Counted from the stretch's first letter, positions 5,536-32,270 are shown. The stretch: DNA of 64,000 nt from Thermoanaerobaculia bacterium (GCA_036558325.1 DATBFU010000085.1:4763-68762); one strand, 5' to 3'. Numbers and translations: made by a program. Notes: generated by a model not told the origin, from the letters alone.

Positions 5536-6522
5536 TCAAACCGCTTCCCGCGGAGCGGGCTTCAACAGCGCCTTCAGCTCCTGCGGCAGCGAGAAGCTCA
5601 CGTTCTCCTTGACGGTCTCGAACTCTTCGACCTTCGAGACGCCGAGTCTTTCCCGGGCGTAGCGCACGACCTCCTGGACGAGGATCTCGGGCGCGGACGC
5701 GCTCGCCGTGAGTCCCAGGACGCGCACGCCATCGAGCCACTCCGGCCGGATGTCCTCCGCGCGCTCGATCAGATGCGAGGCCACGCCCTGGTCGCGGGCG
5801 ACCTCACAGAGACGGAGGGAATTCGAGCTGTTCGGCGCGCCGAGGACGAGGAGCAGATCGACGAACGGCGCCATCGCCTTCACCGCGTCCTGCCGGTTCT
5901 GGGTCGCATAGCAGATGTCGTCCTTCGCCGGGCGCGCGAGCCTGGGGAACCGCCGCTTCAGAACCTCGACGATGTCGCGGGTATCGTCGAGCGAGAGCGT
6001 CGTCTGCGTCAGATACGCCACCCGCTCCGGGTCCGGCACCTGGACGGCCTCGGCCTCTTCCTTGCTGCCGACGAGTCGGATCGAATTCGGCGCCTCGCCG
6101 AGCGTCCCGATCGTTTCGTCGTGGTCCTCGTGCCCGATGAGGATGATCGTGTAACCGCTGCGGGCGTACTGGATCGCCTCGAGGTGGACCTTGGTCACCA
6201 GCGGGCAGGTCGCGTCGATCGTGCGCAGCCTCTTTCGCCGCGCGTTCTCGCGCACCGACGGCGCGATGCCGTGCGCCGAATAGACCAGCCAGGCGCCGTC
6301 CGGCACGTCGTCCACTTCCTCGACGAAGCGGGCGCCCTTGCTGCGGAGCTCGTCCACGACATAGCGGTTGTGGATGATCTCCTTGCGGACGTAGACCGGG
6401 CCCTCGCAGACGTCGAGCGCCTTCTCGACGACGTCGATCGCCCGCACCACACCCGCGCAGAAACCTCGCAGGCCGGCGACGAGGAGCTTCTCGATCCGCG
6501 GCGCGGGAGAAGACGCGCTCAC
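5536..6522 (-). CDS. ispH: 4-hydroxy-3-methylbut-2-enyl diphosphate reductase
   Basis: This is the C-terminal 328 aa of the 948-aa track ORF. The GTG start at 6522 overlaps the dxs stop as GTGA. The three cluster cysteines sit in the expected contexts: GFCAGV, ATCPLVTKVH and DICYATQNRQ. Confidence 0.9.
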   Translation of the reverse strand: MSASSPAPRIEKLLVAGLRGFCAGVVRAIDVVEKALDVCEGPVYVRKEIIHNRYVVDELRSKGARFVEEVDDVPDGAWLVYSAHGIAPSVRENARRKRLRTIDATCPLVTKVHLEAIQYARSGYTIILIGHEDHDETIGTLGEAPNSIRLVGSKEEAEAVQVPDPERVAYLTQTTLSLDDTRDIVEVLKRRFPRLARPAKDDICYATQNRQDAVKAMAPFVDLLLVLGAPNSSNSLRLCEVARDQGVASHLIERAEDIRPEWLDGVRVLGLTASASAPEILVQEVVRYARERLGVSKVEEFETVKENVSFSLPQELKALLKPAPREAV

Positions 6523-8462
6523 CAGGTCACCGTCTCCGCGACGATCGCACGCGGCCCTCCCGCGCGGCCCGGGCGCGCGCCCGTGCGGTCGGCGAGGTCC
6601 GGGTACAGCGCGAGGGCCGTCTCGACGACGCCCGCGGGATCGAGCTTGAAGTTGGCGCGCTGCATGGGCGCGGGGCTGTGCTCGACGAACTGATCGGGAA
6701 TCCCGTGCACGCGCAGCCCCTCGGCGTTCCAGCCGGCGCGGTGGAAGGCCTCGAGGACGGCGCTGCCGAAGCCGCCGAGCGCCAGATGTTCCTCGAGCGT
6801 GAGGACGCGCGGCGCGGACTCGTGCACCGCGCGAAGGAGCTCGAGGTCGAGCGGCTTGGCGAAGCGGGCGTTGGCGACTCCGGCGTCGATGCCGTGCTCG
6901 GCGAGCATCGCCGCGGCCTCCTCGGCCACCGGCACCATCGATCCGTAGGCGACGAAGAAGAGGTCGCGCCCCGGCCGCCGGATCTCCCCTTTGCCGATCG
7001 GAATGGCGGCGACCTTTTCGTCGAGCGGCACGCCGAGGCCGGCCCCGCGCGGGTACCGGACCGTGAACGGCTTGCCCGACTCCAGCGCGGTGTAGATCAG
7101 GTGCTGCAGCTCGTTCTCGTCGCGCCCCGCGGCGACCGTCATGTTGGGGATGCCGCGCGTGTAGGCGATGTCGTAGATGCCCTGATGCGTCTTCCCGTCG
7201 TCGCCGACGAGCCCCGCGCGATCCACACAGACCGTGACCGGAAGGTTCTGCAGGCAGACGTCGTGGATGAGCTGGTCGTAGGAGCGCTGCAGGAAGGTCG
7301 AATAGATCGCGACGACGGGCTTCCAGCCCTCCTTGGCCATGCCGGCCGCCATGATCACGGCGTGCTCTTCGGCGATGCCGACGTCGTACACGCGGTCCGG
7401 GAACTTCTTCTTGACCTCGATCAGAGCCGTCCCCTCGAGCATCGCCGCGCTGATGGCGACGATCTTCTCGTCCTTCTCCATCAGGCCGATGAGCGTCCGG
7501 GCGAAGACCTGCGAGTACGTAAAGCGCGGCGCCGAGCCCGGGGCGCCGGTCGGCGTGCCGGGCTGATGGAACTTGCACGGGTTCTCCTCGGCCATCGGAT
7601 ACCCGCGCCCCTTGTGGGTCAGCGCGTGGATGACGACCGGGGTGCCGTCGGCGGAGACGTCCTTCGCGCGGGCGAGCGCGTCCTCGAGCTCGACGAAATT
7701 GTGGCCGTCCACGGGCCCGACGTAGTGGAAACCGAGCTCGTCCCACACGAGGTTCGGAAGGAAGAGCCCTTCCACGGAGCTCTTGAGCTTCCGCGCCAGC
7801 TCCCAGGCCTTGTCGCCGTGAGGCAGGCGTTTGACGAACTTGTGGCCCTTCTCGATGAACTTCCCGTAGGCCGGATGCAGCTCGAAACGGTTGCGCCAGT
7901 GCACCATCCAGCCGACGTTTTCGGAGATCGACCAGCCGTTGTCGTTCAGGACCACGATCAGCCGCTTGGGCTTCACGTGAACGATGTTGTTCAGCGCTTC
8001 GTAGCTCGGACCGGAGGTCAGCGCGCCGTCGCCGACGATCACGACGACGTACGGATCCTCCGCGGCCTTCTGGAGCGCCATCGAGACGCCGAGCCCGTAG
8101 GACAGGCCCGTTCCGGCGTGGCCCGCCGCGAGCGTGTCGTGCGCGCTCTCGGTCGGCTCGGCGAAGCCGGAGAGCCCGCCCGGAGTCCGGATCGAGGCGA
8201 ACTTCGCGCGGCGTCCCGTGACGAGCTTGTGGGTGTAGCACTGGTTCGACGTGTCCCACACCAGGCGGTCCTTCGGGCTGTCGAAGGCGCGGTGGAGGGC
8301 CAGGGTCAGCTCGACGACGCCAAGATTCGAAGCCAGGTGGCCCCCGGTCTTCGTGATCGTCTCGATGATCGTGTCCCGACACTCCTGCGCCAGGACCTCG
8401 AGTTGCTTATGGCTGAGCGGCTTCAGGTCGCGGGGACCGTCGATGCGGTTCAAAACTTTCAT
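6519..8462 (-). CDS. dxs: 1-deoxy-D-xylulose-5-phosphate synthase
   Basis: The 647-aa protein starts MKVLNRIDGPRDLKPLS..GGHLASNLGVVELTLALH. It carries the TPP motif IVGDGALTSG..LNDN and a transketolase-like C-terminal domain. Confidence 0.95.
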   Translation of the reverse strand: MKVLNRIDGPRDLKPLSHKQLEVLAQECRDTIIETITKTGGHLASNLGVVELTLALHRAFDSPKDRLVWDTSNQCYTHKLVTGRRAKFASIRTPGGLSGFAEPTESAHDTLAAGHAGTGLSYGLGVSMALQKAAEDPYVVVIVGDGALTSGPSYEALNNIVHVKPKRLIVVLNDNGWSISENVGWMVHWRNRFELHPAYGKFIEKGHKFVKRLPHGDKAWELARKLKSSVEGLFLPNLVWDELGFHYVGPVDGHNFVELEDALARAKDVSADGTPVVIHALTHKGRGYPMAEENPCKFHQPGTPTGAPGSAPRFTYSQVFARTLIGLMEKDEKIVAISAAMLEGTALIEVKKKFPDRVYDVGIAEEHAVIMAAGMAKEGWKPVVAIYSTFLQRSYDQLIHDVCLQNLPVTVCVDRAGLVGDDGKTHQGIYDIAYTRGIPNMTVAAGRDENELQHLIYTALESGKPFTVRYPRGAGLGVPLDEKVAAIPIGKGEIRRPGRDLFFVAYGSMVPVAEEAAAMLAEHGIDAGVANARFAKPLDLELLRAVHESAPRVLTLEEHLALGGFGSAVLEAFHRAGWNAEGLRVHGIPDQFVEHSPAPMQRANFKLDPAGVVETALALYPDLADRTGARPGRAGGPRAIVAETVTW

Positions 8463-8659: not shown

Positions 8660-9526
8660 ATGGATTCCGTTCGCATCGGTTCCGAGGAGCACAAGCGACT
8701 CTTCTGCCGGACGTTCGTCGAGACCCACGATCCGTTCAAGCCCGAAGCGATCGTCTGGCCGGACCTCGACGCGGAGAGTCTCGCGCGGCTCAAGTCGCTT
8801 CCCGTCTGGAACGAGGCCGCGCGCACCGAGGCGGCGACGGCGGTCAAGGTCCAGGCGCTCGGCCGGACGGAGACCGATCCGATCCTCGCCGAGGCCATCG
8901 CTCTCCAGGGCTACGAGGAGGGCCGCCATGCCGACGTCATCCGGCGGCTGACCTCCTTCTACGGCATTCCCGTCAAGCCTTTCCCCGAGCCCGAGGCGCC
9001 GAAAAACCCCACCTGGACTTTTCTCCGAACCGGCTACGGCGAGTGCCTCGATTCCTTCTTCGCGTTCGGCCTCTTCTCGCTCGGGAGCAAGTCCGGCCTC
9101 TTTCCCGACAAGGTCGTCGCCGTCTTCGAGACGATCATGCAGGAGGAGGCGCGCCACATCCTCTTCATCGTCAACTGGGCCGCGTATCTGCGCGCGCAGC
9201 GTCCGCTGCCGCTGCGCCCCGCCTTCGACGCGCGACGGGCCTGGAACGTCGTCGCGCAGGCGGTGGACCGGGTGCGCGGCGCCATGCAGCTCGGCGGCGG
9301 CGGCGGCGATGAGCAGTACGGCTTCACGCTCTCGAGCCACACGAGCTTCTCGGACTTCTCGCTGAGGCCGTTCCTGGAGCTGTGCCTCTCGGAGAACGAG
9401 CGCCGCTTCGCGCCCTACGACCGGCGCCTGCTGCGGCCGACGCTCGTGCCGTCGGCGGTCAAGGCGCTTCTGAAAGTGTTGCCGCGCGGGAAATCGGCGA
9501 CGCCTTCGAGCGCCGCCGCGGCCTGA
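8660..9526 (+). CDS. Ferritin-like di-iron carboxylate protein of unknown function
   Basis: AAGGAG lies 10 nt upstream of the ATG. There are two ExxH-type motifs about 85 residues apart (QGYEEGRHAD and IMQEEARHILF), as in di-iron oxygenase, desaturase or AurF-like folds. Third-position GC is high. The antisense ORF 8459..9340 is shadow-like. Confidence 0.7.
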   Translation: MDSVRIGSEEHKRLFCRTFVETHDPFKPEAIVWPDLDAESLARLKSLPVWNEAARTEAATAVKVQALGRTETDPILAEAIALQGYEEGRHADVIRRLTSFYGIPVKPFPEPEAPKNPTWTFLRTGYGECLDSFFAFGLFSLGSKSGLFPDKVVAVFETIMQEEARHILFIVNWAAYLRAQRPLPLRPAFDARRAWNVVAQAVDRVRGAMQLGGGGGDEQYGFTLSSHTSFSDFSLRPFLELCLSENERRFAPYDRRLLRPTLVPSAVKALLKVLPRGKSATPSSAAAA

Positions 9527-9533
9527 GCCCGAG

Positions 9534-9755
9534 TTAGAGGACCTTCTTCGCGCGGAGCTCGCGCAGGATCACCCAGCCGAGCAGCCCGGCCGCCAGCAGG
9601 AGGAGCGGCGGCCCGAGGAACATGAAGACGACGAACGTGTAGGCCGTCTCCTTGATGAGCAGGACGATCGCCAGCGCGAGCATCACCATCGTCGCGATCG
9701 CCGCAACCCGCAGCGCCTTCGCTTCCTTCGCCGACGCGGTCCGGATCTCGCTCAC
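9534..9755 (-). CDS. Small two-helix membrane protein (about 73 aa), last gene of the cytochrome operon
   Basis: The GTG at 9755 overlaps the stop of the tetraheme gene as GTGA. Hydrophobic segments are AAIATMVMLALAIVLLI and FVVFMFLGPPLLLLAAGLLGWVIL. An alternative ATG start at MVMLAL is possible. No family was recognised. Confidence 0.45.
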   Translation of the reverse strand: MSEIRTASAKEAKALRVAAIATMVMLALAIVLLIKETAYTFVVFMFLGPPLLLLAAGLLGWVILRELRAKKVL

Positions 9756-10468
9756 TTCATGGCCTGCTTTTCGGGCGGGGCCTCGGCCTTCTCGGGCGTG
9801 TGCGCCGGGCCGTGGCAGTCGAGGCAGGAATCCTGCCCCGCCATCAGCTTCGGAATCTCTTCCTTGTCGTGCTTCGCGAGGAAATTCTGGGCGCCGCCGT
9901 GGCATGAAAGGCAGCGGAGGTTCGAGTACGGGACCCGCACCTTCAACGGCAGCTCGTATTGGCCCGTGAGATTCCGATACGTGTGGCCGAGGCCCGCGAA
10001 TTTGGCGCCGAGCGTTCCGGTGAACCCGTAATCGCTGTGGCAGGTATAACAGTGGTTCTCCTGGATGTACCGGTTCTTGTAGTGCACGGCCGCGAGCGAT
10101 TCGCTCTTCGGATTGCGCAGATCGGTGAAATGGCCGTCCATGACGTGGCAGGCGCCGCACGCCTCGGTCTTCATGGACTCGCTCATTCCGTGCGCCGTCG
10201 CCAGGAAGAGCACGACGACGGGCAACACGACGATCGCGCCGAGAAGCATCGCCTTCGAAGCCGCCGTCACGCCCCGGCGCCGCACCATCCGCCACAGGAC
10301 GACGATCAGAATGAGATTCAGGGCGGCGAAGACGAGTCCGACGCCCTGAATCCACTGATTCGTCGTTCCGAGCCAACCGCGCGGATCCGGCACGCCGAAG
10401 TCGCGCGGAGCGCCCGCGAGCGCCGCCGGCGCGAGGAAAGCCGCGAGCGCGACGGCGCGGCGCTTCAC
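9752..10468 (-). CDS. Membrane-anchored tetraheme c-type cytochrome (NapC/NirT/CymA-like quinol dehydrogenase candidate)
   Basis: There are four CxxCH motifs: CGACH, CYTCH, CLSCH and CLDCH. Two N-terminal hydrophobic helices are present (GVGLVFAALNLILIVVLW, AMLLGAIVVLPVVVLFLATA). The start is reset to the GTG at 10468, which shares 1 nt with the upstream TAG stop. Confidence 0.8.
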   Translation of the reverse strand: MKRRAVALAAFLAPAALAGAPRDFGVPDPRGWLGTTNQWIQGVGLVFAALNLILIVVLWRMVRRRGVTAASKAMLLGAIVVLPVVVLFLATAHGMSESMKTEACGACHVMDGHFTDLRNPKSESLAAVHYKNRYIQENHCYTCHSDYGFTGTLGAKFAGLGHTYRNLTGQYELPLKVRVPYSNLRCLSCHGGAQNFLAKHDKEEIPKLMAGQDSCLDCHGPAHTPEKAEAPPEKQAMK

Positions 10469-10752
10469 TACTTCTTGCCCGGGTAGTCCTTCAACCAGGC
10501 CCCGTCCACGGCCTTGGCGCCGCGCTTGTCCTTCTCGGCCACGAGCCACTTGCCCGCGTCATTCAGGTCGTGCGCGTCCTTCTTGGGGAGCTTGTCGATG
10601 TGGCAGGTCGTGCAGTCCTTGACCGTCACGCCGGCGGCCTTGGCCTGTTTCTGAATGTTCATGTCAGCCGAAGACGTTCCGGAGAACGCGACCCAGCCGC
10701 CCCAGAAGAGAAGCGCCGCGGTCAACGCGAGACGGGAGCCCCTGGTCTTCAT
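10468..10752 (-). CDS. Small periplasmic monoheme c-type cytochrome (MtoD-like position)
   Basis: The start is reset to the ATG at 10752, preceded by GAGGAGG. It has a signal peptide (MKTRGSRLALTAALLFWGGWVAFSGTSSA) and a single CTTCH motif. The precursor is 94 aa. Confidence 0.75.
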   Translation of the reverse strand: MKTRGSRLALTAALLFWGGWVAFSGTSSADMNIQKQAKAAGVTVKDCTTCHIDKLPKKDAHDLNDAGKWLVAEKDKRGAKAVDGAWLKDYPGKK

Positions 10753-10786
10753 CGAGTTCCTCCTCAAAGAATGCGGAAATCCTACG

Positions 10787-12748
10787 TCACGGAGTCCAAT
10801 GGAGGAAGACCCCGTAGCGATTCGCGTTGTAGTCGGCCAGGCTCCCGGCCTGGTCGAACGCCGGCTTCTCGCCGTACTGGTCTCGGAGCCACTCGAACGC
10901 GGCGCCGTAGTGGGCATTGAAGGCGTATTCGGCGCGCGCCCGGACTCGGTTGATGGTGAAGGGAATCGACCCGACGTTCTTCATCCAGAGATACGCGCCG
11001 TCGAGCGTCAGGCTCTTCCAGAGGGCCCGGAGGCCGCCCTCCCACGTGTGTCCCATCTCCTTCTGCGCCTCGGGCACGATGTCGAAGTCCTGAGGCTGGC
11101 GGATCAGGATGCCGCGATCGACCTTGAACTCCCCCGCCGACGCGTGGAAGGTGAGGATCTTCGCGACCGGACCGACCTCGAGATCGGCGTTGAGCTCGCG
11201 GACCCGCGTGTTGTAGCCGATCTCGGGCGCGTCGCCGTGGGCCTGCGTCTCCTGCCACGTCCCGCCGATCCGCACGAGATCCTTCCACTTCCAGCCGCCC
11301 CGCAGCTTGAATCGGTCGCGCGCGGTGAAGTCCGTCCGGAAGATCGGCTGGTTGCCGTCGTCCCGCCGGTAGTCGGCGGAGGCCGTGAATCCGTCCTTCG
11401 CGTAGCTCACGCCCGCGCCGTAGGTGTTGACGGTCCGCGTGAAGTTCTGGCCGGGCTCCGCGGCGAGGATCTCGGAGCTCTGCGTCGAGAACGTGACGTC
11501 CTGATGCGTCTGCGACCATCCGGCGTTGAAGGCGAAAGGACCGAAGAGCCTCGCGGTGACCGTCGCGTCGAAGGTTCGATCCGTCCGGTCGATCGCCGAG
11601 TCGTACTGGACGAGCTTCTGGAGATCCCCCACGCTCACGCCGCCGTACGTCACGGTGTCGACGAAGAGGCTCGTCACGAGCGACAACCCGTCGAGCGTCC
11701 GGCTCTTCTCGGTCCAGCCGGCCGTCAGATCGACGTTCGGCGCGAGATTGACGTCGGCGCGCACCGAGCCGCGCCAGTAGTCGGTCTTGGCCTTGGCGCT
11801 GATCGTGTCGTCGAGCCCCGAGAAGAAACGCGCGATCTGAAACGAGACGAAGCTGCCGGTGTCGATCTCGCTCGACTGCGCGTCGCCGTTGGCGTCGGCG
11901 CGGATGTAGCTGCCGACGAGCTTGACGCGCGAGAAGATCGTCCCCGAGACCCAGGCGCTCGTGACCGGCGTGTTCACCCGGCTCGTGGTCGTGCGGTCGA
12001 TGCCGTCGGCCGTAATGGGCTGGCCGAGGATCGGGAAGTCGATGTTGCCGTTGCCCGCGCCGGCGCGGAGCGACGCGACGTCCGTCCACCGGTAGCGCCG
12101 CCATCCCTGGATCACGGCGCCGCGCACCGGCCCCACGTCGAAGGCGAGCCCGATGCGGTACTCGTCGTCCACCGCCTGCACGCGGTCGTCGAGCGCGAAC
12201 TCGTTCTCGCCGACGTGATACGTCGTCGTGCCCGGGCCGCGGTAGACGTTGCGCGTGAAGCCGAGGATGGGCGTGAGCTTCTTGCCGGGAAAGATCTCGA
12301 GCGTCGCGTCGTAGATGTCGCGCGAGCGGTTGTAGGTCTGCTGGCCCGGGACGATGCCCTCGTCGAGAAACGGGTTGGCGAACGCGGGCAGGGCGCTGTA
12401 GAGATTCGTCCGTCGCCAGCTGAAGTTCAGCCGGAAGGTATCGACCTGGCCGGCCCGGAAGCGCAGCGCGCCCGCCGGTCCCGCGCCGAGGTCGTCGGCA
12501 TCGACGTGCGCATAGTCGAAGACCCCGTCGAGCGGCCCCGCGGAGTCCCACGAGAGCGTCCGCAGGAGAAAGCCCGGGCGGTCGTTGATCTGGGAGCGGT
12601 ACATCTGGTCGTTGCCCGAGACGTCGACGAAGCGGTAGCCGAGCTCGAGCTCGGGCAGGGGCGCTTGCGTCTGCCCGAAGACCGCCCCGGCCGGAATCGC
12701 GGCGGCCAGGGCCCCCAGAGCCAGACGCGCGCGGATCGCCTTTCTCAT
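10787..12748 (-). CDS. Outer-membrane beta-barrel protein, MtrB/PioB-like (decaheme-associated porin)
   Basis: The 653-aa protein has a signal peptide (MRKAIRARLALGALAAAIPAGAVFGQ). It has alternating aromatic/polar beta-strand-like composition throughout and no cysteine. It starts 5 nt downstream of the periplasmic decaheme gene, which is the mtrA-mtrB arrangement. Confidence 0.75.
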   Translation of the reverse strand: MRKAIRARLALGALAAAIPAGAVFGQTQAPLPELELGYRFVDVSGNDQMYRSQINDRPGFLLRTLSWDSAGPLDGVFDYAHVDADDLGAGPAGALRFRAGQVDTFRLNFSWRRTNLYSALPAFANPFLDEGIVPGQQTYNRSRDIYDATLEIFPGKKLTPILGFTRNVYRGPGTTTYHVGENEFALDDRVQAVDDEYRIGLAFDVGPVRGAVIQGWRRYRWTDVASLRAGAGNGNIDFPILGQPITADGIDRTTTSRVNTPVTSAWVSGTIFSRVKLVGSYIRADANGDAQSSEIDTGSFVSFQIARFFSGLDDTISAKAKTDYWRGSVRADVNLAPNVDLTAGWTEKSRTLDGLSLVTSLFVDTVTYGGVSVGDLQKLVQYDSAIDRTDRTFDATVTARLFGPFAFNAGWSQTHQDVTFSTQSSEILAAEPGQNFTRTVNTYGAGVSYAKDGFTASADYRRDDGNQPIFRTDFTARDRFKLRGGWKWKDLVRIGGTWQETQAHGDAPEIGYNTRVRELNADLEVGPVAKILTFHASAGEFKVDRGILIRQPQDFDIVPEAQKEMGHTWEGGLRALWKSLTLDGAYLWMKNVGSIPFTINRVRARAEYAFNAHYGAAFEWLRDQYGEKPAFDQAGSLADYNANRYGVFLHWTP

Positions 12749-12752
12749 GCGC

Positions 12753-13745
12753 CTACTTCAAGAACACCGGCGACAGATTCGAGCCGTGCACCGCCACGTG
12801 GCAGCTCGTGCAGTTGCGATAGCGCGGCAGCGTCAGGTCGTGGAAGGACGGAGGCTGACCGCCGGCGGTCGCCGGGCCGCCCGTCTGCGAGTGGCACGAC
12901 AGGCACATCTGGTCGACGCGCGACCAGAGAAGCATCTTCGGATTGTTCGAGCCGTGCGGCTGATGACACGAGAGGCAGTCGCCGGCCGTCCCCGTGACGT
13001 GATCGAAGACGAAGGGGCCGCGCTTTTCCGCGTGGCAGTTCAGGCAGGCGAGCTCGCCGTCGCGGGTGAGCTTGACCGTCCGTCCCTTGCGGTCGTGCGG
13101 GTCGTGGCAGTCGACGCACGTCATCCCGCCGCGGTCGAGACGGTGGGCGTAGGGCTTGTTGCGGAAGGAAGACGCGATGCCCGCATGACAGGTCTGGCAG
13201 AGCTCGCCCGGTTTCTTCGCGAGCAGGAACGGCTCCGTCTTGGGACCTCCGTGGACCGCGTGACATGAGAGACAGTTGACGGCCGCCGAGTTGGCGTGGA
13301 ACCCCGTCGTGAACGAGGCGTGCTCGTTCGACTTCTCGTGACAGGAAAGGCACAGCTCCGCGCCTTCGGCGCCATGGAATCGCTGGATCAGCGTCGCGTC
13401 GCCGCCGGCTTCGACGTGCTTTGTCCCGTCGCCGTGGCAGGTCGAGCAGAATTCCTCGAGCTCCGGCTTCTTGCCCTTGTGCGACCAGCGCGCGTGGGGA
13501 TTCGAGCCGAAGGCAGCGACGAGATCCGTGTGGCAGTCGGCGCACTTGGGAAGCGGCTCCGCCGCCTTCGCGGCTTCGGGGGCCGGAGTGGTCTCGGCAG
13601 ACGGCGCCGCGGCCGGGGCCGGAGTCGCTGCCGGCGTCGGCGTCGCCGCCGGAGCGGGCGTCGGCGACTCCTGCGCCGGAGCCAGAACGCCGACCGCCAG
13701 AAGGAACCCCGCGAGCCCGAGCGCGGTGCGTCCCCGCGACATCAA
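12753..13745 (-). CDS. Periplasmic decaheme c-type cytochrome, MtrA/DmsE/MtoA family
   Basis: The 330-aa protein has a signal peptide and exactly ten CxxCH motifs: CADCH, CSTCH, CLSCH, CLSCH, CQTCH, CVDCH, CLNCH, CLSCH, CLSCH and CTSCH. Every cysteine is in a heme motif. Size and heme density match MtrA-type proteins. Confidence 0.9.
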   Translation of the reverse strand: MMSRGRTALGLAGFLLAVGVLAPAQESPTPAPAATPTPAATPAPAAAPSAETTPAPEAAKAAEPLPKCADCHTDLVAAFGSNPHARWSHKGKKPELEEFCSTCHGDGTKHVEAGGDATLIQRFHGAEGAELCLSCHEKSNEHASFTTGFHANSAAVNCLSCHAVHGGPKTEPFLLAKKPGELCQTCHAGIASSFRNKPYAHRLDRGGMTCVDCHDPHDRKGRTVKLTRDGELACLNCHAEKRGPFVFDHVTGTAGDCLSCHQPHGSNNPKMLLWSRVDQMCLSCHSQTGGPATAGGQPPSFHDLTLPRYRNCTSCHVAVHGSNLSPVFLK

Positions 13746-13763
13746 ACCCTCACTTCCCTCGAA

Positions 13764-13782
13764 AGGCCGGAAAGTACGGCCT
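13764..13782 (-). other. Intercistronic hairpin between the MtrC-like and MtrA-like genes
   Basis: AGGCCG-N7-CGGCCT forms a 6-bp GC stem in the 51-nt spacer. On the coding strand it is followed by GGGAAGTGAGGG (SD-like) and the ATG at 13745. The function is unknown. Confidence 0.3.
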
Positions 13783-13796
13783 CGTCGCCACCGCTC

Positions 13797-15905
13797 TTAC
13801 CGCGCGTGAACCTTGTCGACCGCTTCCTCGCCGTCGGTCCCGTGACACACCGCGCACGCTTCGCCGAACGGAGCCGTCATGAGGAAGGCATGGGCCGCGG
13901 CCGCCTGGGTGTCGTGACACCCGAGGCAGGCGGCAGCGTAGTGGAACTGCGGCGTGTACCAGTCGCGTGGCGTCGCGGTCTTCAGCCAGCCGGCCGGCGG
14001 CGTGCCGATGACTTCCTGCGAGTCCGGCACGTGGCACTTCTCGCAGTCGCGCCGGTCGCCGGGGAATCGCACCTCGTTGAAGTTGTTCACGCTCGGCGGC
14101 GTTCCAAACCCGAAGATCGTGAAGTCGTGCGTCAGATCCTCGCCCGTGTGGATCCGGTGGATCATCCGCTTGAAGTCGATCGACTCGACGGGCAGCTGGT
14201 CGGCCGGACGCCGCGACCCGTCGTCTCCGTTCGGGTTGTGGCAGATGACGCACTCTTCCGTGTTCAGGCGCTGGCCGCCGTGGAGGGCCAGCCGGTCGTG
14301 GCAGGTGTTGCAGAGCGCGAGGTCCACGACCTGCCGCCGCGGCGCGATCGCGCTGCCGTCCACCGAGGCATACGTGACCGGGTTGAACGCGGCCTCATTG
14401 AAGCTCGAGGTGTCGGGCGCCGGCGGATCGAGCGTGATGGTCCGGCGCGCCTCGATCGAGAACGCCCAGGTGCCGGTCGCGTCGCCCGGAATCGCGTTGG
14501 TGAACGTGTAGGACGCCACGGACCCGTTGAAGCTCGCTCCGTCGGCGCGCTCGCGGAACGGCTGGATCGAGTAATCGACCGTGGGGCCGCCCATGAGAAG
14601 GTTCAGGTTGGAGCCGAGAGTCGAGGGATCGACGATCGCGCCGTCATTCTCGGTCAGCTTGAAGGTGACCGTCGGCTTCTGACCGCGGCTCGTGTTCGCC
14701 ACGGAGAGGATCTGCGCGTTCAGCCCCTTCAGCTGCGCCGCGCGATAGGGCACCGTGTGCGCTCCCATGATCGAAGCGTCGAAGTCCCGGTCGCCCTGGG
14801 GCCGATGGCAGTTCGCGCACTGCGAGTCGTCCGCCTCCGGTCCACCCGGATGATTCTCCCCGGTCACGAAATTCACGTCGTCGTGGCAGGACTGGCACGC
14901 TGCGCGCGTCGGATAGGTGAACCAGTTGGACGCCTGCGTCGTGTCGGTGGGCGTGCCCGCCTTGCCGTGGCAAGTCGTGCAGTTGCGGATGTCCTGGGGG
15001 AAGGCCACGGTCGAGAAGTCGTGGACCGAGGCGTTGTTTCCGATGATCACGTAGGGCGTGCCCGCTTGCACGCTCGGAAGGTCCTCGCCCCGATGGATCT
15101 TGTGGATCATGACCTTGAAGTCCACCGTGTTGCCGGTATCGGGATCCGTCGTCTGCGGGCTGTGGCACGTCACGCAGAGCTTCACGTCCTGGCGCGAGCC
15201 GCCGTGAGCGGAGAGCGGGTTGTGGCAGGTATTGCAGGCGGCGTTCGAGACGACGTCCCACGTGTCGGTGACGGTGCCGGCGTCCGGCCGGAAGTCGTGC
15301 TCGACGTTCGCGTAATAGTCCTTGCCGAGGATGTCGCTCGTGTCGCGGGTCGCGTAGATCGCGAGCGTGTGCGTCTTCGTCGGGTCGTAAGGCACGCCAT
15401 TCACCGACGTGACGACGGTCTTGAAACGATAGGTCGAGTGACCGATCGAGAGATCCGTCCATGTGCCGCCGGAGTCCGCGGCGGCCTGCGTCGCCATGAC
15501 GCCGTTGCCGCCGGTCTGCACGCGCGTCGTGTAGGCCGTGTACTGACGAAGCGTCGGGTCCCACCGTGCGAGGACGAGGCTCACGGAGAGCGCGCCCGGC
15601 GTGACCTGCCCGAGCCGGTCGAGCGGCTGGTTTCCGTCGTCGGTGAAGGACAGATCGGCCACCGCCCGTCCGTCGGCGGGGATCATGACGCTGTTGACCG
15701 TGATGTGGAAGCCGGGGCGGATGAAGTCGAACTGGTCCTGCGTCAGCCAGAATTCTTTCGCGCTCGACGGGTACTTCGACTGAGGCGAGTCGGCGGCAGG
15801 CCCCCCGCGCAGCCCGACGACGCGCGCCGTTCGGGAGTCGGCGGGCGATAACGGAACGAGCGCCATGAAACCGACCGCGAGCAAAGCCCCCCGCTTCGCC
15901 AACAT
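13797..15905 (-). CDS. Decaheme c-type cytochrome with MtrC/OmcA-type architecture (candidate cell-surface terminal reductase)
   Basis: The 702-aa protein has ten CxxCH motifs arranged 5 + 5: CNTCH, CVTCH, CTTCH, CQSCH, CANCH, then a Cys-free segment of about 130 aa, then CNTCH, CVICH, CEKCH, CLGCH, CAVCH. A heme-free N-terminal domain of about 220 aa precedes them. There is an internal duplication, CNTCH..HGG.R..C..CH.P..DFK.MIH.IH.GEDL. GGAGGTGGG lies upstream of the ATG. Confidence 0.85.
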   Translation of the reverse strand: MLAKRGALLAVGFMALVPLSPADSRTARVVGLRGGPAADSPQSKYPSSAKEFWLTQDQFDFIRPGFHITVNSVMIPADGRAVADLSFTDDGNQPLDRLGQVTPGALSVSLVLARWDPTLRQYTAYTTRVQTGGNGVMATQAAADSGGTWTDLSIGHSTYRFKTVVTSVNGVPYDPTKTHTLAIYATRDTSDILGKDYYANVEHDFRPDAGTVTDTWDVVSNAACNTCHNPLSAHGGSRQDVKLCVTCHSPQTTDPDTGNTVDFKVMIHKIHRGEDLPSVQAGTPYVIIGNNASVHDFSTVAFPQDIRNCTTCHGKAGTPTDTTQASNWFTYPTRAACQSCHDDVNFVTGENHPGGPEADDSQCANCHRPQGDRDFDASIMGAHTVPYRAAQLKGLNAQILSVANTSRGQKPTVTFKLTENDGAIVDPSTLGSNLNLLMGGPTVDYSIQPFRERADGASFNGSVASYTFTNAIPGDATGTWAFSIEARRTITLDPPAPDTSSFNEAAFNPVTYASVDGSAIAPRRQVVDLALCNTCHDRLALHGGQRLNTEECVICHNPNGDDGSRRPADQLPVESIDFKRMIHRIHTGEDLTHDFTIFGFGTPPSVNNFNEVRFPGDRRDCEKCHVPDSQEVIGTPPAGWLKTATPRDWYTPQFHYAAACLGCHDTQAAAAHAFLMTAPFGEACAVCHGTDGEEAVDKVHAR

Positions 15906-15994
15906 GGTCCCACCTCCGTGAACGGCTGACTTTTTCTACTACAGGTTCGAGGGTTCACCTAGTGGGACTTTAGGGCAGCGGCCGAGATGAACGA

Positions 15995-16012
15995 ATGATG
16001 AATCTGCATCAT
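15995..16012. promoter_or_regulatory. Perfect inverted repeat ATGATG-N6-CATCAT upstream of the MtrC-like gene (candidate operator)
   Basis: It lies in the comparatively AT-rich 237-nt spacer, 90-107 nt upstream of the ATG at 15905. It is seen directly in the sequence. No regulator can be assigned. Confidence 0.3.
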
Positions 16013-16142
16013 CGGCTCGGGGATCCGCCCTTCGTCCCGGACGGTCTCCGCGCTCCGGGCCTCTTTCTTGCAGCAAGGCCCGGTCGCCCAACCGGGCGCC
16101 GGGGAATCCTTGCGCCGGAGGAGGTGAGATGGAGGGCCGCTG

Positions 16143-17036
16143 TCAGACGGCGGGCTCGTCTCGATCCAGAGAACGTTTGAGTCTCTGTGTCAAAAGGAAG
16201 ACCTCTGGCCGGCTGACCTTGGAGCCCGGACCGTGCTTCTCGATCCGATCCAGGGAGGCCCGGGCCAGAAGGACCGGAAGCGCCGTGAACTCGACCAGCC
16301 CTCGGGGGGCCCGGTTCGCCTGAAGCGCCCCGATGTATTCGCCGGCCGTTTCGAGGTCCCGCCGGGCCAGCGCGAAGACCTCCGATCGCGAAACGGCGGG
16401 CGGCAGATAGGTCCGGCCCTCGGCGGCGTCGCCCGCGGAATCCTTGAGGATGTTGACCAGCTGCAGCGCCTCGCCGAACGAAGCCGCCCGCTCGCGCAGG
16501 AAGGGAGCGATGCCGGCGAGGTCCGGCCGGCCGAGCAGGAAGAGCTCGGTCAGCATCTCGCCGACGATGCCGGCGACGAAGTAACAGTAGCTCTTCAGGT
16601 CGGCGACGTCCTTCAGGACCAGATTGCCGCCCTCCGTTCGTCCCACGTACTCGGCCATGCCTTCCGCGGAGCGTTCGACGTGCCCCCGCACGGGCTCGAC
16701 GGCGTCCGGAGACAGAGCGAAGAAGGACTCGAGCACGTAGGGGACGTCGCACATCAGCTCGCGGTAACCGGCGTGAGGCGTGATCCCCGCGGCAACCCAC
16801 TCCGCGCTCAGACGCTCGGCGTTCGGGCGCGAGTAGTCGCGCAGGAGCATGCGGAACTCTCCGAGCGCGGCGGTCCGCCGGGCGGGGTCCCAATGCGACG
16901 CGTCCTCGAAGGTGTCGGCGATGCGGAAAAGAAGGTACGCGATCATCACCTCGCGCCGGGTCGGCTCCGGCAAGACCGGAATCGAGAGCGCGAACGTGCG
17001 GCTCGTTTTTTCGAGGAGGTCTTCCAGTGACGACAT
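16143..17036 (-). CDS. sqs: Squalene synthase (farnesyl-diphosphate farnesyltransferase, single-enzyme SQS type)
   Basis: The 297-aa protein has an N-terminus, LEKTSRTFALSIPVLPEPTRREVMIAYLLFRIADTFED, resembling the SQS signature KTSRSFA..LR..DT.ED. The second conserved block, YCYFVAGIVGEMLT, is also present. Confidence 0.85.
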   Translation of the reverse strand: MSSLEDLLEKTSRTFALSIPVLPEPTRREVMIAYLLFRIADTFEDASHWDPARRTAALGEFRMLLRDYSRPNAERLSAEWVAAGITPHAGYRELMCDVPYVLESFFALSPDAVEPVRGHVERSAEGMAEYVGRTEGGNLVLKDVADLKSYCYFVAGIVGEMLTELFLLGRPDLAGIAPFLRERAASFGEALQLVNILKDSAGDAAEGRTYLPPAVSRSEVFALARRDLETAGEYIGALQANRAPRGLVEFTALPVLLARASLDRIEKHGPGSKVSRPEVFLLTQRLKRSLDRDEPAV

Positions 17037-17447: not shown

Positions 17448-20400
17448 ATGAGGGAACCTTCCGCGTCGGGATCGTCCGTGAATCGCCGCGACCTCTTCAA
17501 GCTGGGGCTCGGAACCGGCGTCGGGCTCGCGCTCGACGGCCTGATCGACGTGCCCGCCATGCGGGCGGCGACGAAGGATCTGAAACTCTCGGAGATTTCG
17601 GAGTTCACCACGTCGTGCAACTTCTGCTCATGCGGCTGCGGCATGATCGCCGCCGTCCGCAACGGGAAACTGATCTCGATGGAGGGCGACTACGATCACA
17701 TCGTCAGCCGCGGCTCCCTCTGCGTCAAAGGCATCTCGATGTTCGCGACGCACGCCTCGCCGAAGCGGCTGACGAAGCCGCTCTACCGTGCGCCCGGCAG
17801 CGACCACTGGGAAGAGATGGAGTGGAAGGACGCGGCGGAAAAAGTCGCCCGCAAGATCCACAAGATCCGCGGTGAGACCTGGATCGCGAGCGAGAAGCTC
17901 CTCCTCAAGAGCCACGTCGCCAACAAGGACGCGATCGGCAAGGAAGCCACCGCGCCGCCCCCGGAAGCGATGGGCAACGAGGTCCCCGTCAACCGGACGG
18001 ACGCGATCGCCTTCCTCGGCGGCGCGCAGAACACGAACGAGGAGTGCTATCTCTTCCAGAAGGCGACGCGACTCCTCGGGATACCCTGGGTCGAGCACCA
18101 GGCCCGACTTTGACACAGCCCCACGGTCCCCGGTCTGGGGGCCGCGTTCGGTCGCGGGGCGATGACCAACCACTGGGTCGACATGCAGCACGCCAAGACG
18201 ATCCTGGTGGAAGGCAGCAACGTCGCCGAAAATCATCCGATGGCCTTCAAGTGGATCCGGAAGGCCCAGGAGAACGGGGCGAAGATCATCCACGTCGACC
18301 CGCGCTTCACGCGGACGTCGGCGACCGCGGACGTCTACGCGCGGATCCGGCCGGGGACCGACGCCGCCTTCCTGAACACGATGGTCAACCACATCCTCGC
18401 GAACAAGCTGTACGACGAGGACTTCGTCACCACCCACACCAACGCCCTCTTCCTGATCCAGCCCGACTTCGCTTTTCACGACGGCCTCTTCAGCGGGTAT
18501 GACGAGGAGAAGCACGCGTACGACACCAAGAGCTGGGGGTACCAGCTCGACGCCCGGGGAAAGCCGCGCCTGGCCGCGAGCCTGGACGATCCCCACTGCG
18601 TCTTCGCGCATCTGAAGAACTTCGTCTCGCGATACGACCTCGCCACCGGCGGGCGCATCACGGGGATCCCGTCCGCCCAGATCCAGGAGATCGCCGAGAC
18701 GATGGCCAAGAACCGGCCGGGGACCATCCTCTACGCGCTCGGCATGACGCAGCACACCACCGGCGTCCAGGGGATCCGCGCGTTCACGATCCTGCAGCTC
18801 CTCCTCGGCAATCTCGGCAAGCCCGGGAGCGGCGTCAACGCTTTGCGGGGCGAGCCCAACGTGCAGGGCGCCTGCGACATGGGCGTGCTCAACAACTATT
18901 TGCCCGGCTACATGGACTATCCGTCGGCGACGGAGCCCACGCTCGCCGCCTACACGAAGAAGAACGGGACCGGCGACCGCCGATTTCTGATCAACATGCT
19001 CAAGGCGTTCTACGGGGACAATGCGACTCCCGAGAACGACTTCTGTTACGCCTGGCTTCCGAAGAAGAACGCCGCCAAGAACTACGGCACGCTCTCGATC
19101 TTCGAGGACGCCCTCGCGGGAAAGCTGAAGCTGCTCTGGATCGTCGGACAGAACCCCGCCGTCACGACGCCCAACCTCAACATGACATTCGCGGGGCTGG
19201 ACAAGCTCGAAACGCTCGTCATCCACGAGATCTGGGAGACCGAGACGGCGGCGTTCTGGAAACGCCCCGGCGCGGATCCGAAATCCATCCCGACCGAGGT
19301 CTTCCTGCTGCCCGCGGCCTTCTTCATGGAGAAGAACGGAACCATCACGAACTCGGGCGGCCTCATTCAGTGGCGCAACAAGGCGGTCCAGGCTCCCGGA
19401 AAGGCCCTGCCGGACGGCGAGGTCGTCGATTACATCTTCCGCCGCATCCGGGACCTCGTGCACGAGTCCCGCGATCCGAAGGACGATCCCGTCCGGAAGG
19501 CGGCCTGGACGTACCTCTCCGCGGAGGACGTGCTCAAGGAGATGAACGGGTTCGCCCTGAAGGATCTCCCCGAGTCCAACCTCAAGGCGGGCGACCTCAT
19601 CACCAAGGTGGCGGATCTGAAGGCCGACGGTTCGACATCGTCCGGCGCGTGGCTGTACGCGGGAGTCTTCTCCGGCGGCGTGAACCTCTCGAAGCGCCGC
19701 GACTGCGTGACCGACCCGGGAAATCTCGGCATCTACCCGAACTTCGCCTGGACCTGGCCCAACAACATGCGCGTCCTCTACAACCGCGCCTCCTGTGACC
19801 GGCACGGCAAGCCGTATCCGGGGTCGAAGCCCATCGTCTGGTGGGACGAGAAGGCCGGGAAGTGGACCGGCTGGGACCTGCCCGACGTGCCCAAGCTGAC
19901 CGACGGTCCCAACACGCCGAACGGCCAGCGCGCATTCCAGATGAACGCCGAAGGCGTCGGCCGCCTCTTCGCCGCCGTCTACAAGGACCCGGACTTCACC
20001 GTCGATCACCCGGAGCGCGACAGCCCGGATCCCCGGGACGTCGGCTACGTGCCCAAGGACGGCCCCCTGCCCGAGATGTACGAGCCGGTCGAGAGCCCGG
20101 TCGAGAACATCCTCCATCCGAAGGTCCGGACCAACCCGACGCTGAAGTATCCGCGCGTCGCGTCGCTCCGGCCGATCGGCTCGGCGGACAAGTTCCCCTA
20201 CGTGCTCATGACCTCGACCGTCGCCGAGCACTGGTGCGGCGGCTCGACGACCCGCAACATCCCGTGGTTAAACGAGCTCATCCCCGAGCCGGTGGTCGAG
20301 ATTCCGCCGTCGCTCGGAAAGAAGCTCGGAGTCAAGAGCGGGGATCTGGTCACCATCTCCTCGGCGCGCGGCGAGCTCACCGTCAAGGCGCTCGTCACGC

Positions 20401-20624
20401 CGAGAATGAAGCCGCTCCAGGCGGACGGCAAGGAAGTCACGATCGTGTGGATGCCGTACAACTGGGGCTTCCAGGGCCTCTCACCCGGAGCGAGCGTCAA
20501 CCACCTGACGATCGACGCGACCGACCCGGGCGCGGGCACGCAGGAGACCAAGGCCTGCCTCGTCAACGTGGTCAAGGCGCCCGCGTCCGCATCGGATGCC
20601 GGTTCCAAAGGGAGAAGGGCATGA
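17448..20624 (+). CDS. fdnG: Formate dehydrogenase-N-type catalytic subunit, molybdopterin, Tat-exported, selenocysteine-containing (in-frame UGA at 18111-18113)
   Basis: Track ORFs 17448..18113 and 18162..20624 are in the same frame. The sequence across the TGA reads VEHQARL-U-HSPTVPGLGAAFGRGAMTNHWVD, colinear with E. coli FdnG VDNQARV-U-HGPTVASLAPTFGRGAMTNHWVD. There is a twin-arginine signal (SVNRRDLFKLGLG) and an N-terminal 4Fe-4S motif (CNFCSCGCG). Similarity to FdnG continues to the C-terminus. Confidence 0.9.
18111..18150 (+). other. UGA-Sec codon plus candidate bacterial SECIS hairpin
   Basis: The TGA is at 18111-18113. Immediately downstream, GCCCC(18118-18122) can pair with GGGGC(18138-18142), with an inner CGG/CCG helix. 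This is the expected position for a bacterial SECIS. The fold was not computed. Confidence 0.55.
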
Positions 20625-22816: not shown

Positions 22817-23676
22817 AGCCCTTGACCCGCGCGGGCTGGGTGGAGGCGCACGCCTACCTCCGGCCCGTCGCGAGCCTCTGCGCCGCCGTGGAGGGCGCGG
22901 CGCGCGAGATTCCGATCGCGGGCGCGACCGCGCCCGCCTGGGAAGATTACGACCCCGACTTCCGCGCCGGCGTCCCGCTGCTCGCGAGCGACGCGGCCGC
23001 GATCGACCGCGCGCCGGCCGGCGAGGCGACGGCGGCGCTCGCGGCGACTCTCGCCGAGTCGCTTTCCGGGCCTTTCGCCGAGGACGCGCTGGTCCTGGAT
23101 GAGACGCTGCGCCGTTTGCGCCCCGGCGCGGGGCGGATCGTCGACTGGCTCCTCGGAGAGGACGACCTCGCGCCGCCGGCTCCCGGGCTCTTGCGGTACC
23201 TCGGGTGGACCGCGACGTCCCGGTATCTCGCGCCGGTGGTCGAGGCCTTCGACCGGCGGCGCAACGACGAGCTCTGGCTGCGGCGCTATTGCCCGACCTG
23301 CGCGTCGCCGCCCGCCATGGCGCAGCTGCTCGGCACGGACCCTGGACGCAAGCGGCTGCTCGCGTGCGGCGGCTGCCGCACCCGCTGGCAGTTCCCGCGC
23401 ACGAAGTGCCCGTTCTGCGAGAACGACTCGCAGAAGCTGTCCGTCGTCACCGTCGAGGGCGAGGCAGGCCTGCGCATCGACTTCTGCGAACCGTGCGGCG
23501 GGTACCTCAAGACGTACGACGGCCAGGGAAACGAGGCGCTTCTGCTCTCCGACTGGAGCTCGCTCCATCTCGATCTCATCGCGCACGACCGCGGGCTGAA
23601 GCGGCGCGCCGCCTCGCTCTTCGCGCTCGACTGGGCCGCGGGACCCGACGCCGGGAACGCCCCGGCGGACGGCTAG
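22813..23676 (+). CDS. fdhE: Formate dehydrogenase accessory protein FdhE
   Basis: This is the C-terminal 287 codons of ORF 21859..23676. The TTG start at 22813 overlaps the upstream stop as TTGA. There are four CxxC pairs (CPTC, CGGC, CPFC, CEPC) spaced as in FdhE. Confidence 0.85.
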   Translation: MKPLTRAGWVEAHAYLRPVASLCAAVEGAAREIPIAGATAPAWEDYDPDFRAGVPLLASDAAAIDRAPAGEATAALAATLAESLSGPFAEDALVLDETLRRLRPGAGRIVDWLLGEDDLAPPAPGLLRYLGWTATSRYLAPVVEAFDRRRNDELWLRRYCPTCASPPAMAQLLGTDPGRKRLLACGGCRTRWQFPRTKCPFCENDSQKLSVVTVEGEAGLRIDFCEPCGGYLKTYDGQGNEALLLSDWSSLHLDLIAHDRGLKRRAASLFALDWAAGPDAGNAPADG

Positions 23677-31111: not shown

Positions 31112-31121
31112 GGCCGGGCGG

Positions 31122-32270
31122 TCAGCGAGCCGCGACGCGAGTGCCGTCGGAGAGCGGGGTCATGCCCGGCAGCAGAACCCTCTCGCCTTCCGACAGGCCG
31201 CTCGCGATCTCGACCGCGTCCGGCGCGAGCAGTCCGATCGTGACGTCGCGGCGGCGGGCGCGGCCGTTCGACAACGCCCAGACGTAGCGGCGCTCGCCGT
31301 CGCGCTGGAGCGCCGCGCGCGGCACGACGAGCGCGCCCTTCTTCTCGGCGACCACGATTCGGACGTTCACGGAGGCGTTGGGCGGGAGCCGGGCCGTCGG
31401 GTCGGCGATCTCGGCCAGCACCTCGGCGACCAGCCGGCCGCCCACGTCCCGCAGGCCCGGCGAGACCTGGACGACTCTGCCGGCCCACTCGCGGTCCGGC
31501 AGGCCGTCGAACGTCACGACGAGGCGCTGCCCCGGCGCGAGTCGAGGCAAGTCCGGCTGATCCACGCGGACGCGGAGGCGCAGCCGCTCCGGATCCGCCA
31601 CGCTCGCGACGAGCTGGCCCTCCTCGACGCTCTCGCCCACCTTGCGCGGCAGGTTGTAAACGACCCCGTCGGCCGGTGCGCGGACGGTGAGCGCCTCGGC
31701 GCGCTGCGAGAGCTCGCGAGCGGAAGCGCCCGCGAGCTCGATCCGCGACCCCGCCAGCGACTCGAGCTTGACCCGTGCGGCCCGCTCCCGCAGGTCGGCG
31801 GCGGCGGATGCGGCGGCGTCGGCCTCGGCGGCCGCGCGCGTGATGGCGCCCTCGGCGAGAAGCCGCCGGTCGCTCTCGACGACCTTCCTGAGGCGGGCCG
31901 AGTCGGCTGCCGCCGTCTCGAGTTCTCCCTCGGCCGCGACGCGCTCGCTCTCGAGCGCGGCCACCTGCGACTTCGCGTCGCGCGCGGAGGTCGAGAGCTT
32001 CGGGTTCTCGAGCACCACGAGCGCTTCCCCGCGGGCGACACGCTGCCCCTCGCGCGCGGGGATTCCGGCGACCGTTGCGCGGTCCGGTGCGCGCAGCTCG
32101 CCTCCGGCCGGCGGCTCGAGCGTCCCGTCGCAAAGGATCGGCACGGAAAGATCCGCGCGCGCCGCGGCGACGGCCGCCACCGCTGCACCCTGTGGCCGCC
32201 GCAATGCCGCCACGCCGGCGATCAACAGGAGGACCAGGCCGAGGACGCCGGCCGCGATACGGATCTTCAT
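31122..32270 (-). CDS. HlyD/MacA-type periplasmic adaptor (membrane fusion protein)
   Basis: The 382-aa protein has an N-terminal anchor helix, a biotinyl-lipoyl-like segment (VAGIPAREGQRVARGEALVVLE), a coiled-coil hairpin and a beta-barrel C-terminus. Confidence 0.85.
   Translation of the reverse strand: MKIRIAAGVLGLVLLLIAGVAALRRPQGAAVAAVAAARADLSVPILCDGTLEPPAGGELRAPDRATVAGIPAREGQRVARGEALVVLENPKLSTSARDAKSQVAALESERVAAEGELETAAADSARLRKVVESDRRLLAEGAITRAAAEADAAASAAADLRERAARVKLESLAGSRIELAGASARELSQRAEALTVRAPADGVVYNLPRKVGESVEEGQLVASVADPERLRLRVRVDQPDLPRLAPGQRLVVTFDGLPDREWAGRVVQVSPGLRDVGGRLVAEVLAEIADPTARLPPNASVNVRIVVAEKKGALVVPRAALQRDGERRYVWALSNGRARRRDVTIGLLAPDAVEIASGLSEGERVLLPGMTPLSDGTRVAAR

Follow-up and report, generated by a model that had tools for sequence, protein, structure and literature searches.

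The question raised by the locus considered here is whether a soil bacterium of the Acidobacteriota holds, in one compact operon, a complete route for electrons between the quinol pool and the cell surface. The locus lies on the minus strand at positions 9534-15905 of a 64,000-nucleotide (nt) stretch of the genome of a Thermoanaerobaculia bacterium (GCA_036558325.1, DATBFU010000085.1:4763-68762; the whole stretch is hereafter called the window), and its operon very probably encodes a self-contained extracellular electron transfer pathway of the MtrCAB type. An initial annotation, made from the DNA letters, had proposed a complete MtrC-MtrA-MtrB conduit together with an operon-encoded quinol dehydrogenase, and this proposal is supported by hidden Markov models (HMMs), by matches in the Protein Data Bank (PDB), by the predicted fold of the barrel protein, by profile comparisons and by the taxonomy of the relatives. 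Specifically, six closely spaced open reading frames (ORFs) of the same direction span the locus:

G1, 13797-15905, minus strand: 702 amino acids (aa), decaheme cytochrome of the OmcA/MtrC family, predicted to lie at the cell surface
G2, 12753-13745 (330 aa, TTG start) or 12753-13742 (329 aa, ATG start at 13742), minus strand: decaheme cytochrome of the MtrA/DmsE family
G3, 10787-12748, minus strand: 653 aa, Cys-free outer-membrane beta-barrel, predicted to be a highly divergent sheath of the MtrB type
G4, 10468-10752, minus strand: 94 aa (about 65 aa when mature), secreted monoheme c-type cytochrome, putative periplasmic shuttle
G5, 9752-10468, minus strand: 238 aa, GTG start, membrane tetraheme cytochrome of the NapC/NirT family, putative (mena)quinol dehydrogenase
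G6, 9534-9755, minus strand: 73 aa, GTG start, two predicted transmembrane helices, putative membrane partner of G5

The six minus-strand genes proposed initially are confirmed by the ORF listing and by an independent call of the same six products (702, 329, 653, 94, 238 and 73 aa) on a JGI metagenome contig of identical sequence (sample 3300037153). Likewise, the count of 25 heme motifs in one operon is exact: CxxCH occurs 10, 10, 0, 1, 4 and 0 times in G1 to G6, respectively, and 50/50 cysteines of the six proteins fall within these motifs, while 2000 shuffled controls made of the same residues average 0.03 motifs and never exceed 1. The junctions are tight and largely as first described, with one base shared by the G4 stop and the G5 start (TAGTG) and a GTGA overlap of translational coupling between G5 and G6, except that the gap between G2 and G3 measures 4 nt and not 5; G3 and G4 are separated by 34 nt containing GGAGGA. 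A promoter scan of positions 9200-16400 found no sigma-70-like site, and the terminator-like sites in the same interval occur at shuffle expectation and are uninformative.

At the outer end of the proposed route, G1 is a member of the OmcA/MtrC family. It scores 509.2 bits on the NCBIfam model TIGR03507 (OmcA/MtrC decaheme; cutoff 209.3), covering profile positions 4-672 of 672, and its best PDB sequence match is MtrF (3pmq, E=2.9e-38), followed by OmcA and MtrC, although its identity to Shewanella MtrC and OmcA is 22-24%. The CxxCH motifs stand at residues 224, 244, 309, 337 and 363 and at 532, 552, 621, 660 and 684, forming two pentaheme domains (residues 224-367 and 532-688) with heme-free domains between and before them. 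Moreover, Pfam PF22113 (MtrC/MtrF domains II/IV) matches the protein twice, and this double match, together with the 5+5 split of the motifs, establishes that the internal duplication is real, as the initial description of an MtrC/OmcA-type decaheme had held; the Cys-free stretch that it placed between the halves is also present, at a length of 165 aa rather than about 130.

The N-terminus of G1 shows a Sec-type signal peptide only, and the surface location is presumptive. G1 has no non-heme cysteine and no cysteine ahead of the first heme, and a lipobox is absent from it and from 80/80 acidobacterial MtrC homologs checked, whereas Shewanella OmcA starts with the lipobox-bearing ...LLLAGCGGS. 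The missing lipobox departs from a feature of the Shewanella members and not from the OmcA/MtrC family as its HMM defines it. A cysteine pair of Shewanella MtrC reportedly controls flavin reduction (PMC9973256); G1, being devoid of non-heme cysteines, cannot form such a pair. Many acidobacterial MtrC homologs also show a conserved stretch immediately after the hydrophobic segment, e.g., PMSNTRVTRVVSR and PLSPADSRTARVVG.

The second decaheme, G2, carries ten CxxCH motifs and was initially assigned to the MtrA/DmsE type, an assignment upheld by a narrow pass of TIGR03508 (DmsE/MtrA decaheme; 199.1 bits, cutoff 192.2) and by a PDB sequence match to 6r2q_A, the MtrA of the solved Mtr complex (E=3.3e-32). 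Aligned over 326 aa, it is 31% identical to Shewanella MtrA. The signal peptide of G2 is followed, ahead of the first heme motif, by a low-complexity linker of about 40 aa rich in Pro, Ala and Thr (residues ~26-66; window 13548-13670), which is missing from Shewanella MtrA (read from locus L081). A nitrite- or hydroxylamine-reductase-type identity of G1 and G2 was considered and rejected: the models of NrfB, NrfH and HmcA remain far below their cutoffs, and the Mtr models pass, in agreement with the family placement first given to both decahemes.

The third component of the conduit, G3, has no match in Pfam (including PF11854, MtrB_PioB, at E<=0.1) or in NCBIfam, so that the MtrB/PioB family models do not confirm the initial placement, and PDB sequence searches with the single sequence and with a 40-sequence family profile return nothing, MtrB not being found. 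These negatives would be expected if G3 were not an MtrB homolog at all and had been recruited independently as a large porin, forming a convergent sheath as in the Geobacter Pcc/Ext porin-cytochrome systems. On the other hand, the initial description of G3 as a Cys-free, large barrel in the MtrB/PioB position is borne out by structure prediction. The AlphaFold2 model, built on the 40-member family alignment, has a predicted local distance difference test score (pLDDT) of 78 and a predicted TM-score (pTM) of 0.73; it is all-beta, with 27 DSSP strand elements that are read as a barrel of about 26 strands, one element being apparently split by a bulge. Among 350,542 PDB chains, the top Foldseek match of this model is MtrB (6r2q_B, E=3.5e-15, TM-scores 0.61/0.62), and the other matches listed reach at most 0.47, mostly with 22-strand TonB-dependent receptors. 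The structural alignment of G3 with MtrB contains 12% identity, and the N-terminal CXXC of Shewanella MtrB (CKGC) is absent from G3, two features that fit a convergent porin.

Profile comparisons bear on both readings of the barrel. The Shewanella MtrB reference comprises 75 genes recovered from loci found with the MtrA sequence, and the broad G3 alignment comprises 101 sequences, namely the close family plus distant representatives from an exhaustive HMMER search. The hhalign probability of the broad family against Shewanella MtrB is 98.4% (E=5e-15, 495 colinear columns), with 0.8% for the reversed-sequence control, while the close family alone reaches 1.0%, which is not significant and agrees with independent recruitment; the homology link between G3 and MtrB is therefore transitive. 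Conversely, the length of this colinear alignment and the null outcome of the reversed control argue against convergence, as does the match of the broad G3-family HMM to a bona fide MtrB of the Ectothiorhodospiraceae at 41.4 bits, the same ORF scoring 509 bits on the Shewanella MtrB HMM. In addition, a distant relative of G3 from the Bryobacteraceae (L065) clears the PF11854 gathering score (25.7 bits against 23), the sole pass among distant acidobacterial relatives whose other scores are 11-21 bits; in a Pfam scan of ten distant barrel-family representatives, PF11854 gave only 13-15 bits, below threshold. Lastly, the MtrA and MtrC partners are clearly homologous and keep their gene order, a pattern that favors co-inheritance. 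G3 adjoins the mtrA-type gene, starting 4 nt downstream of it, and this adjacency is kept in 65/80 of the best loci of G1 relatives (L001-L080), a survey in which many gene absences fall at contig ends. We regard the convergent porin as highly improbable and conclude that G3 is, on profile and fold evidence, most probably a very divergent MtrB homolog that works as the sheath and lies below the curated family threshold. As a separate observation, proteins of the barrel family have a conserved C-terminal ...HW(T/R)P (end of G3, window 10787-10801), in which W651 is nearly invariant and P653 invariant; such an ending, in place of a terminal aromatic residue, is unusual for an outer-membrane beta-signal.

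On the inner side of the conduit, the three remaining genes encode the putative link to the quinone pool. G5 contains four CxxCH motifs and scores 34.9 bits on Pfam PF03264 (NapC/NirT; gathering 24.1), in accordance with the CymA-like tetraheme of the NapC/NirT family that had been proposed for the operon. On NCBIfam models, its scores stay below the cutoffs of NrfH (43.5 against 134.2), napC_nirT (28.6 against 310.6) and TorC (28.9 against 478); since the equivalog cutoffs of NrfH and NapC are missed, G5 is neither NrfH nor NapC proper. The models listed included none specific to CymA. No match was returned for G5 among PDB sequences. A Kyte-Doolittle scan shows two strong transmembrane segments (38-64 and 66-97) behind a hydrophobic N-terminus, i.e., three hydrophobic segments in total, unlike CymA and NrfH, which have a single N-terminal anchor. 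G5 has 494 homologs, which among the matches listed are mostly 229-247 aa long and are named NapC/NirT or NrfH-like in their sources. Its neighbor G6 matches no Pfam or NCBIfam family, and it is kept at 37-82% identity in 8 related loci, each time adjoining a G5 homolog.

G4 contains one CTTCH motif, and C47, C50, H51 and H61 are invariant across 33 homologs, a pattern that suggests bis-His heme ligation through H51 and H61. It belongs to no Pfam or NCBIfam family; its 321 homologs measure about 91-121 aa and, among the matches listed, carry no Pfam domain. In 15/80 related loci a G4 homolog is present, every time after the barrel gene. The initial annotation had likened this monoheme to MtoD, a comparison that finds no support: a phmmer search of the whole set of PDB sequences (E<=10) gave two chance matches only, the AlphaFold2 model is weak (pLDDT 69.6, pTM 0.36), and Foldseek of this weak model returned nothing at E<=0.001, only meaningless histone folds. 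The identity of G4 as an MtoD-like cytochrome is, on these grounds, unsupported.

The families of G1, G2 and G5, the MtrB-like fold and distant kinship of G3 and the conserved operon layout are shown by the analysis; where the proteins reside, in what sequence the carriers act, which quinol feeds them and that the flow is outward are inferred. The proposed route would begin with the oxidation of menaquinol by G5, the inner-membrane tetraheme of the NapC/NirT type, perhaps with the help of the two-helix G6. The small monoheme G4 would then ferry the electrons over the periplasm to G2, which, threaded as MtrA in the barrel of about 26 strands formed by G3, may take them through the outer membrane. 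Finally, G1, as the MtrC of the cell surface, would hand them to acceptors that are insoluble or of high molecular weight, e.g., Fe(III) and Mn(IV) oxides or humic and particulate organic matter.

Several points weigh against this interpretation of the operon. G3 remains below every curated MtrB model, its close-family profile fails to reach MtrB, and its homology to MtrB depends on transitive links and on a predicted fold; G2 clears the TIGR03508 cutoff by just 7 bits; G1 is without the lipoprotein anchor found in Shewanella MtrC; and the roles of G4 and G6 are guesses from gene position alone. Moreover, the direction of the flow is unreadable from the sequence, and the Mtr conduits of Shewanella are reversible.

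With regard to this direction, outward flow, i.e., metal or humic reduction, is the likeliest, and it is favored because a surface MtrC is present, because Thermoanaerobaculum aquaticum, a cultured member of the Thermoanaerobaculia, reduces iron and has genes for MtrC and MtrA (PMC9671151), and because a possible quinone-reducing donor lies nearby (see below). The same conduit could run inward, with Fe(II), reduced humics, minerals or a partner cell as the donor and the quinone pool, reached through G4 and G5, as the recipient, on the model proposed for the MtoAB-MtoD-CymA system of Sideroxydans, but this appears unlikely. The bidirectionality of the Shewanella conduits and the layout of the operon, in which a monoheme gene and then a NapC/NirT gene follow the barrel gene in a manner resembling mto, are compatible with it, whereas a surface MtrC is typical of reducers and is generally missing from Fe(II)-oxidizer clusters of the MtoAB/PioAB type. 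Furthermore, G4 has no detectable relationship to MtoD, the cultured relative T. aquaticum is a Fe(III) reducer, and no marker of iron oxidizers was seen within the examined parts of the window. Outward transfer of electrons from menaquinol to extracellular acceptors hence remains the preferred reading of the operon.

Comparison with characterized systems places the locus close to the Shewanella MtrCAB complex (6R2Q) with CymA, with which it shares two decahemes, a barrel of about 650 aa and the C-A-B order, and in which a NapC/NirT-family tetraheme, CymA, holds the place of the likely quinol oxidase of the window. Apart from the lipobox, the cysteine pair and the CKGC motif discussed above, it differs in that the operon itself supplies the quinol dehydrogenase, a protein with three hydrophobic segments and a two-helix partner, and in that a dedicated monoheme stands where a periplasmic shuttle is expected. 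The MtoA-MtoB-MtoD-CymA(ES-1) cluster of Sideroxydans is alike in having monoheme and NapC/NirT-family genes after the barrel gene, a likeness of gene order only: it is not known to have a surface decaheme of the MtrC type, which the window has in G1, and MtoD shows no detectable sequence relationship to G4, whose fold search from the weak model (pLDDT 69.6) returned nothing.

MtrCAB systems of Acidobacteriota have already been published, and the window adds a further member, from the Thermoanaerobaculia. Baker et al. 2022 (mBio, PMC8805035) reported MtrCAB in 148 species, including five Acidobacteriia that form their 'Group 5' (Bryobacterales and unclassified); Kato et al. 2022 found MtrABC in metagenome-assembled genomes (MAGs) of Acidobacteriota, and Fiorito et al. 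2026 (bioRxiv 10.64898/2026.05.27.727921) described an expressed Mtr-like conduit, 'EET2', in peat Bryobacterales. The window shares with Group 5 and EET2 the mtrC-mtrA-mtrB order and a single mtrC, and it differs in coming from the Thermoanaerobaculia instead of the Bryobacterales. It also differs in its tail, composed of the monoheme, the NapC/NirT tetraheme and the two-helix protein, whereas in Group 5 clusters mtrB is followed by a tetraheme ('periplasmic'), with no inner-membrane quinol oxidoreductase reported in the vicinity (PMC8805035). In the same survey, nearly all mtrCAB groups include one or more members with a CymA homolog, and Group 6 has a monoheme plus an inner-membrane tetraheme (PMC8805035). 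The idea of a hybrid between metal-reducer and iron-oxidizer versions, advanced in the initial annotation, is therefore unneeded: such accessories recur across the groups, and the tail is ordinary modular variation. The loci of Bryobacteraceae, Terriglobia and Solibacteraceae, which share taxon names with the published group, are relatives of the window at 46-48% (G1), 37-39% (G2) and 23-25% (G3) identity; tblastn detected no G5 homolog in the Bryobacteraceae loci, and downstream of the barrel in four Bryobacterales/Terriglobia loci, 3/4 have no heme ORF and the remaining one (L073) has a different tetraheme of 377 aa.

The closest relatives of G1 and G3 all belong to MAGs of Thermoanaerobaculia and other Acidobacteriota, which, together with a set of envelope-spanning export genes in the window (see below), bears out the non-proteobacterial diderm host suggested initially. 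Relatives of G1, the MtrC of the operon, are encoded in 412 species-representative genomes, compared with 5 acidobacterial genomes in the 2022 survey. In the best 80 loci, homologs of G2, G3, G4, G5 and G6 number 71, 65, 15, 11 and 8, respectively; the C-A-B core is kept in 65/80 and the full six-gene arrangement in 7 loci, and the tail formed by the monoheme, the NapC/NirT protein and the small protein is confined to a subclade. Similarity declines stepwise: within the Acidobacteriota, identities range over 46-81% (G1), 37-87% (G2) and 23-83% (G3); to proteobacterial clusters, they are 24-38% (G1) and 30-37% (G2), and no G3 homolog was detected in those clusters by tblastn. T. aquaticum is neither among the best 80 loci nor among the motif-scan matches listed (see below).

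Downstream of the barrel gene, sibling loci carry a G4-type monoheme, single or in two tandem copies, and after it a different inner-membrane module, even in a relative whose MtrC, MtrA and MtrB are 80-83% identical. This alternative module, which replaces G5-G6, has two parts. The first is a cytochrome with 11-12 hemes, to which some loci add a fused cytochrome b561/FdnI-like domain, and the second, about 480 aa long, combines three transmembrane helices, a NapC/NirT region and five hemes. The monoheme copies and the alternative module lie at the following positions:

L012, 15119-19401: sibling locus with the alternative module
L013, 15097-19165: sibling locus with the alternative module
L009, 15134-19897: sibling locus with the alternative module
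L071, 15175-19367: sibling locus with the alternative module
L005, 16057-21583: sibling locus with the alternative module

The inner-membrane module thus appears swappable between sibling loci: they keep the monoheme yet carry other multiheme modules, so that of the two accessories the monoheme is the more constant and the quinol-oxidizing module the interchangeable one. These modules presumably resemble CbcL and ImcH, the inner-membrane quinol oxidases of Geobacter, in architecture only, and the window has the small NapC/NirT version in their place. The possibility that G5 is a simple truncation of the 485-aa NapC-like protein of the sibling loci was rejected, as the two resemble each other only weakly, in the region of the first hemes (E=0.008).

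Clusters of the acidobacterial Mtr type are also found in MAGs assigned to other phyla. A Gemmatimonadales MAG (L175) holds one whose proteins are 62%, 73% and 61% identical to G1, G2 and G3, respectively, and a Longimicrobiales MAG (L042) and a Nitrospinae MAG (L204) likewise hold such clusters, as a result of either horizontal transfer or binning error. In addition, a motif scan of contigs (L162-L239) for DFKxMIHxIH, a motif of the MtrC domain, returned, among the matches listed, genomes labeled Planctomycetota, Myxococcota, Binatia, Nitrospirota, Chloroflexota and others; the range of MtrC-type domains therefore extends far outside the taxa in which they are commonly discussed.

With slightly less than an even chance, the operon represents a distinct, self-sufficient module reaching from quinol to the surface, defined by a non-lipidated MtrC, a barrel so diverged that curated MtrB models do not find it, a private monoheme family and a swappable NapC/NirT protein with three transmembrane segments plus its two-helix partner, and Mtr-type extracellular respiration could then be far commoner in soil Acidobacteriota than the published counts imply. 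The locus leaves the concept of the porin-cytochrome conduit unchanged. Its G3 barrel is invisible to the Pfam and NCBIfam models, and pipelines built on the joint presence of MtrA, MtrB and MtrC may therefore under-count acidobacterial Mtr systems; if the tentative reading is true, rule-based HMM surveys that need an MtrB match would skip such loci. This matters for a phylum that is among the most abundant in soil and whose role in the respiration of iron, manganese and humic substances is poorly constrained. Moreover, the monoheme of 65 residues when mature and the small NapC/NirT protein with its two-helix partner are compact candidates for studying how, in an Mtr system outside the Proteobacteria, electrons traverse the periplasm and exit the quinone pool.

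The surroundings of the operon contain further genes related to electron transfer and to the cell envelope. On the plus strand, a molybdopterin oxidoreductase with a Tat signal (17448-20624) contains an in-frame TGA at 18111-18113 in the context VEHQARL-TGA-HSPTVPG (HQARL-U-HSPTV), which we take to resemble the selenocysteine site of the alpha subunits of formate dehydrogenase-N. An ORF at 19841-22816 encodes an FeS-cluster protein (CIGCRACQVAC...) that runs into an NrfD/PsrC-like membrane part, and an ORF with FdhE-like domains (21859-23676) lies downstream of the molybdopterin oxidoreductase frames. These genes, 1.5 kb upstream of the operon, could encode a periplasm-facing, selenocysteine-containing enzyme of the formate dehydrogenase type with a quinone-interacting part, and hence an electron source that reduces quinone.

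At the opposite end, a 288-aa ORF on the plus strand (8660-9526) without a Pfam family converges on the operon, its stop lying 7 nt from that of G6, and the gene call for the identical JGI contig includes it too. The window also carries isoprenoid genes on the minus strand at 16143-17036, 6519-8462 and 33667-34854 (squalene/phytoene synthase family, dxs and dxr), the gene of the squalene/phytoene synthase family sitting directly upstream of the operon; by their predicted products, they are consistent with the earlier suggestion of hopanoid production. Lastly, genes for a TolC-family outer-membrane efflux protein, a MacB-type permease and an HlyD-type adaptor lie in a row at 28558-32270 (minus strand), a set consistent with a diderm cell envelope.

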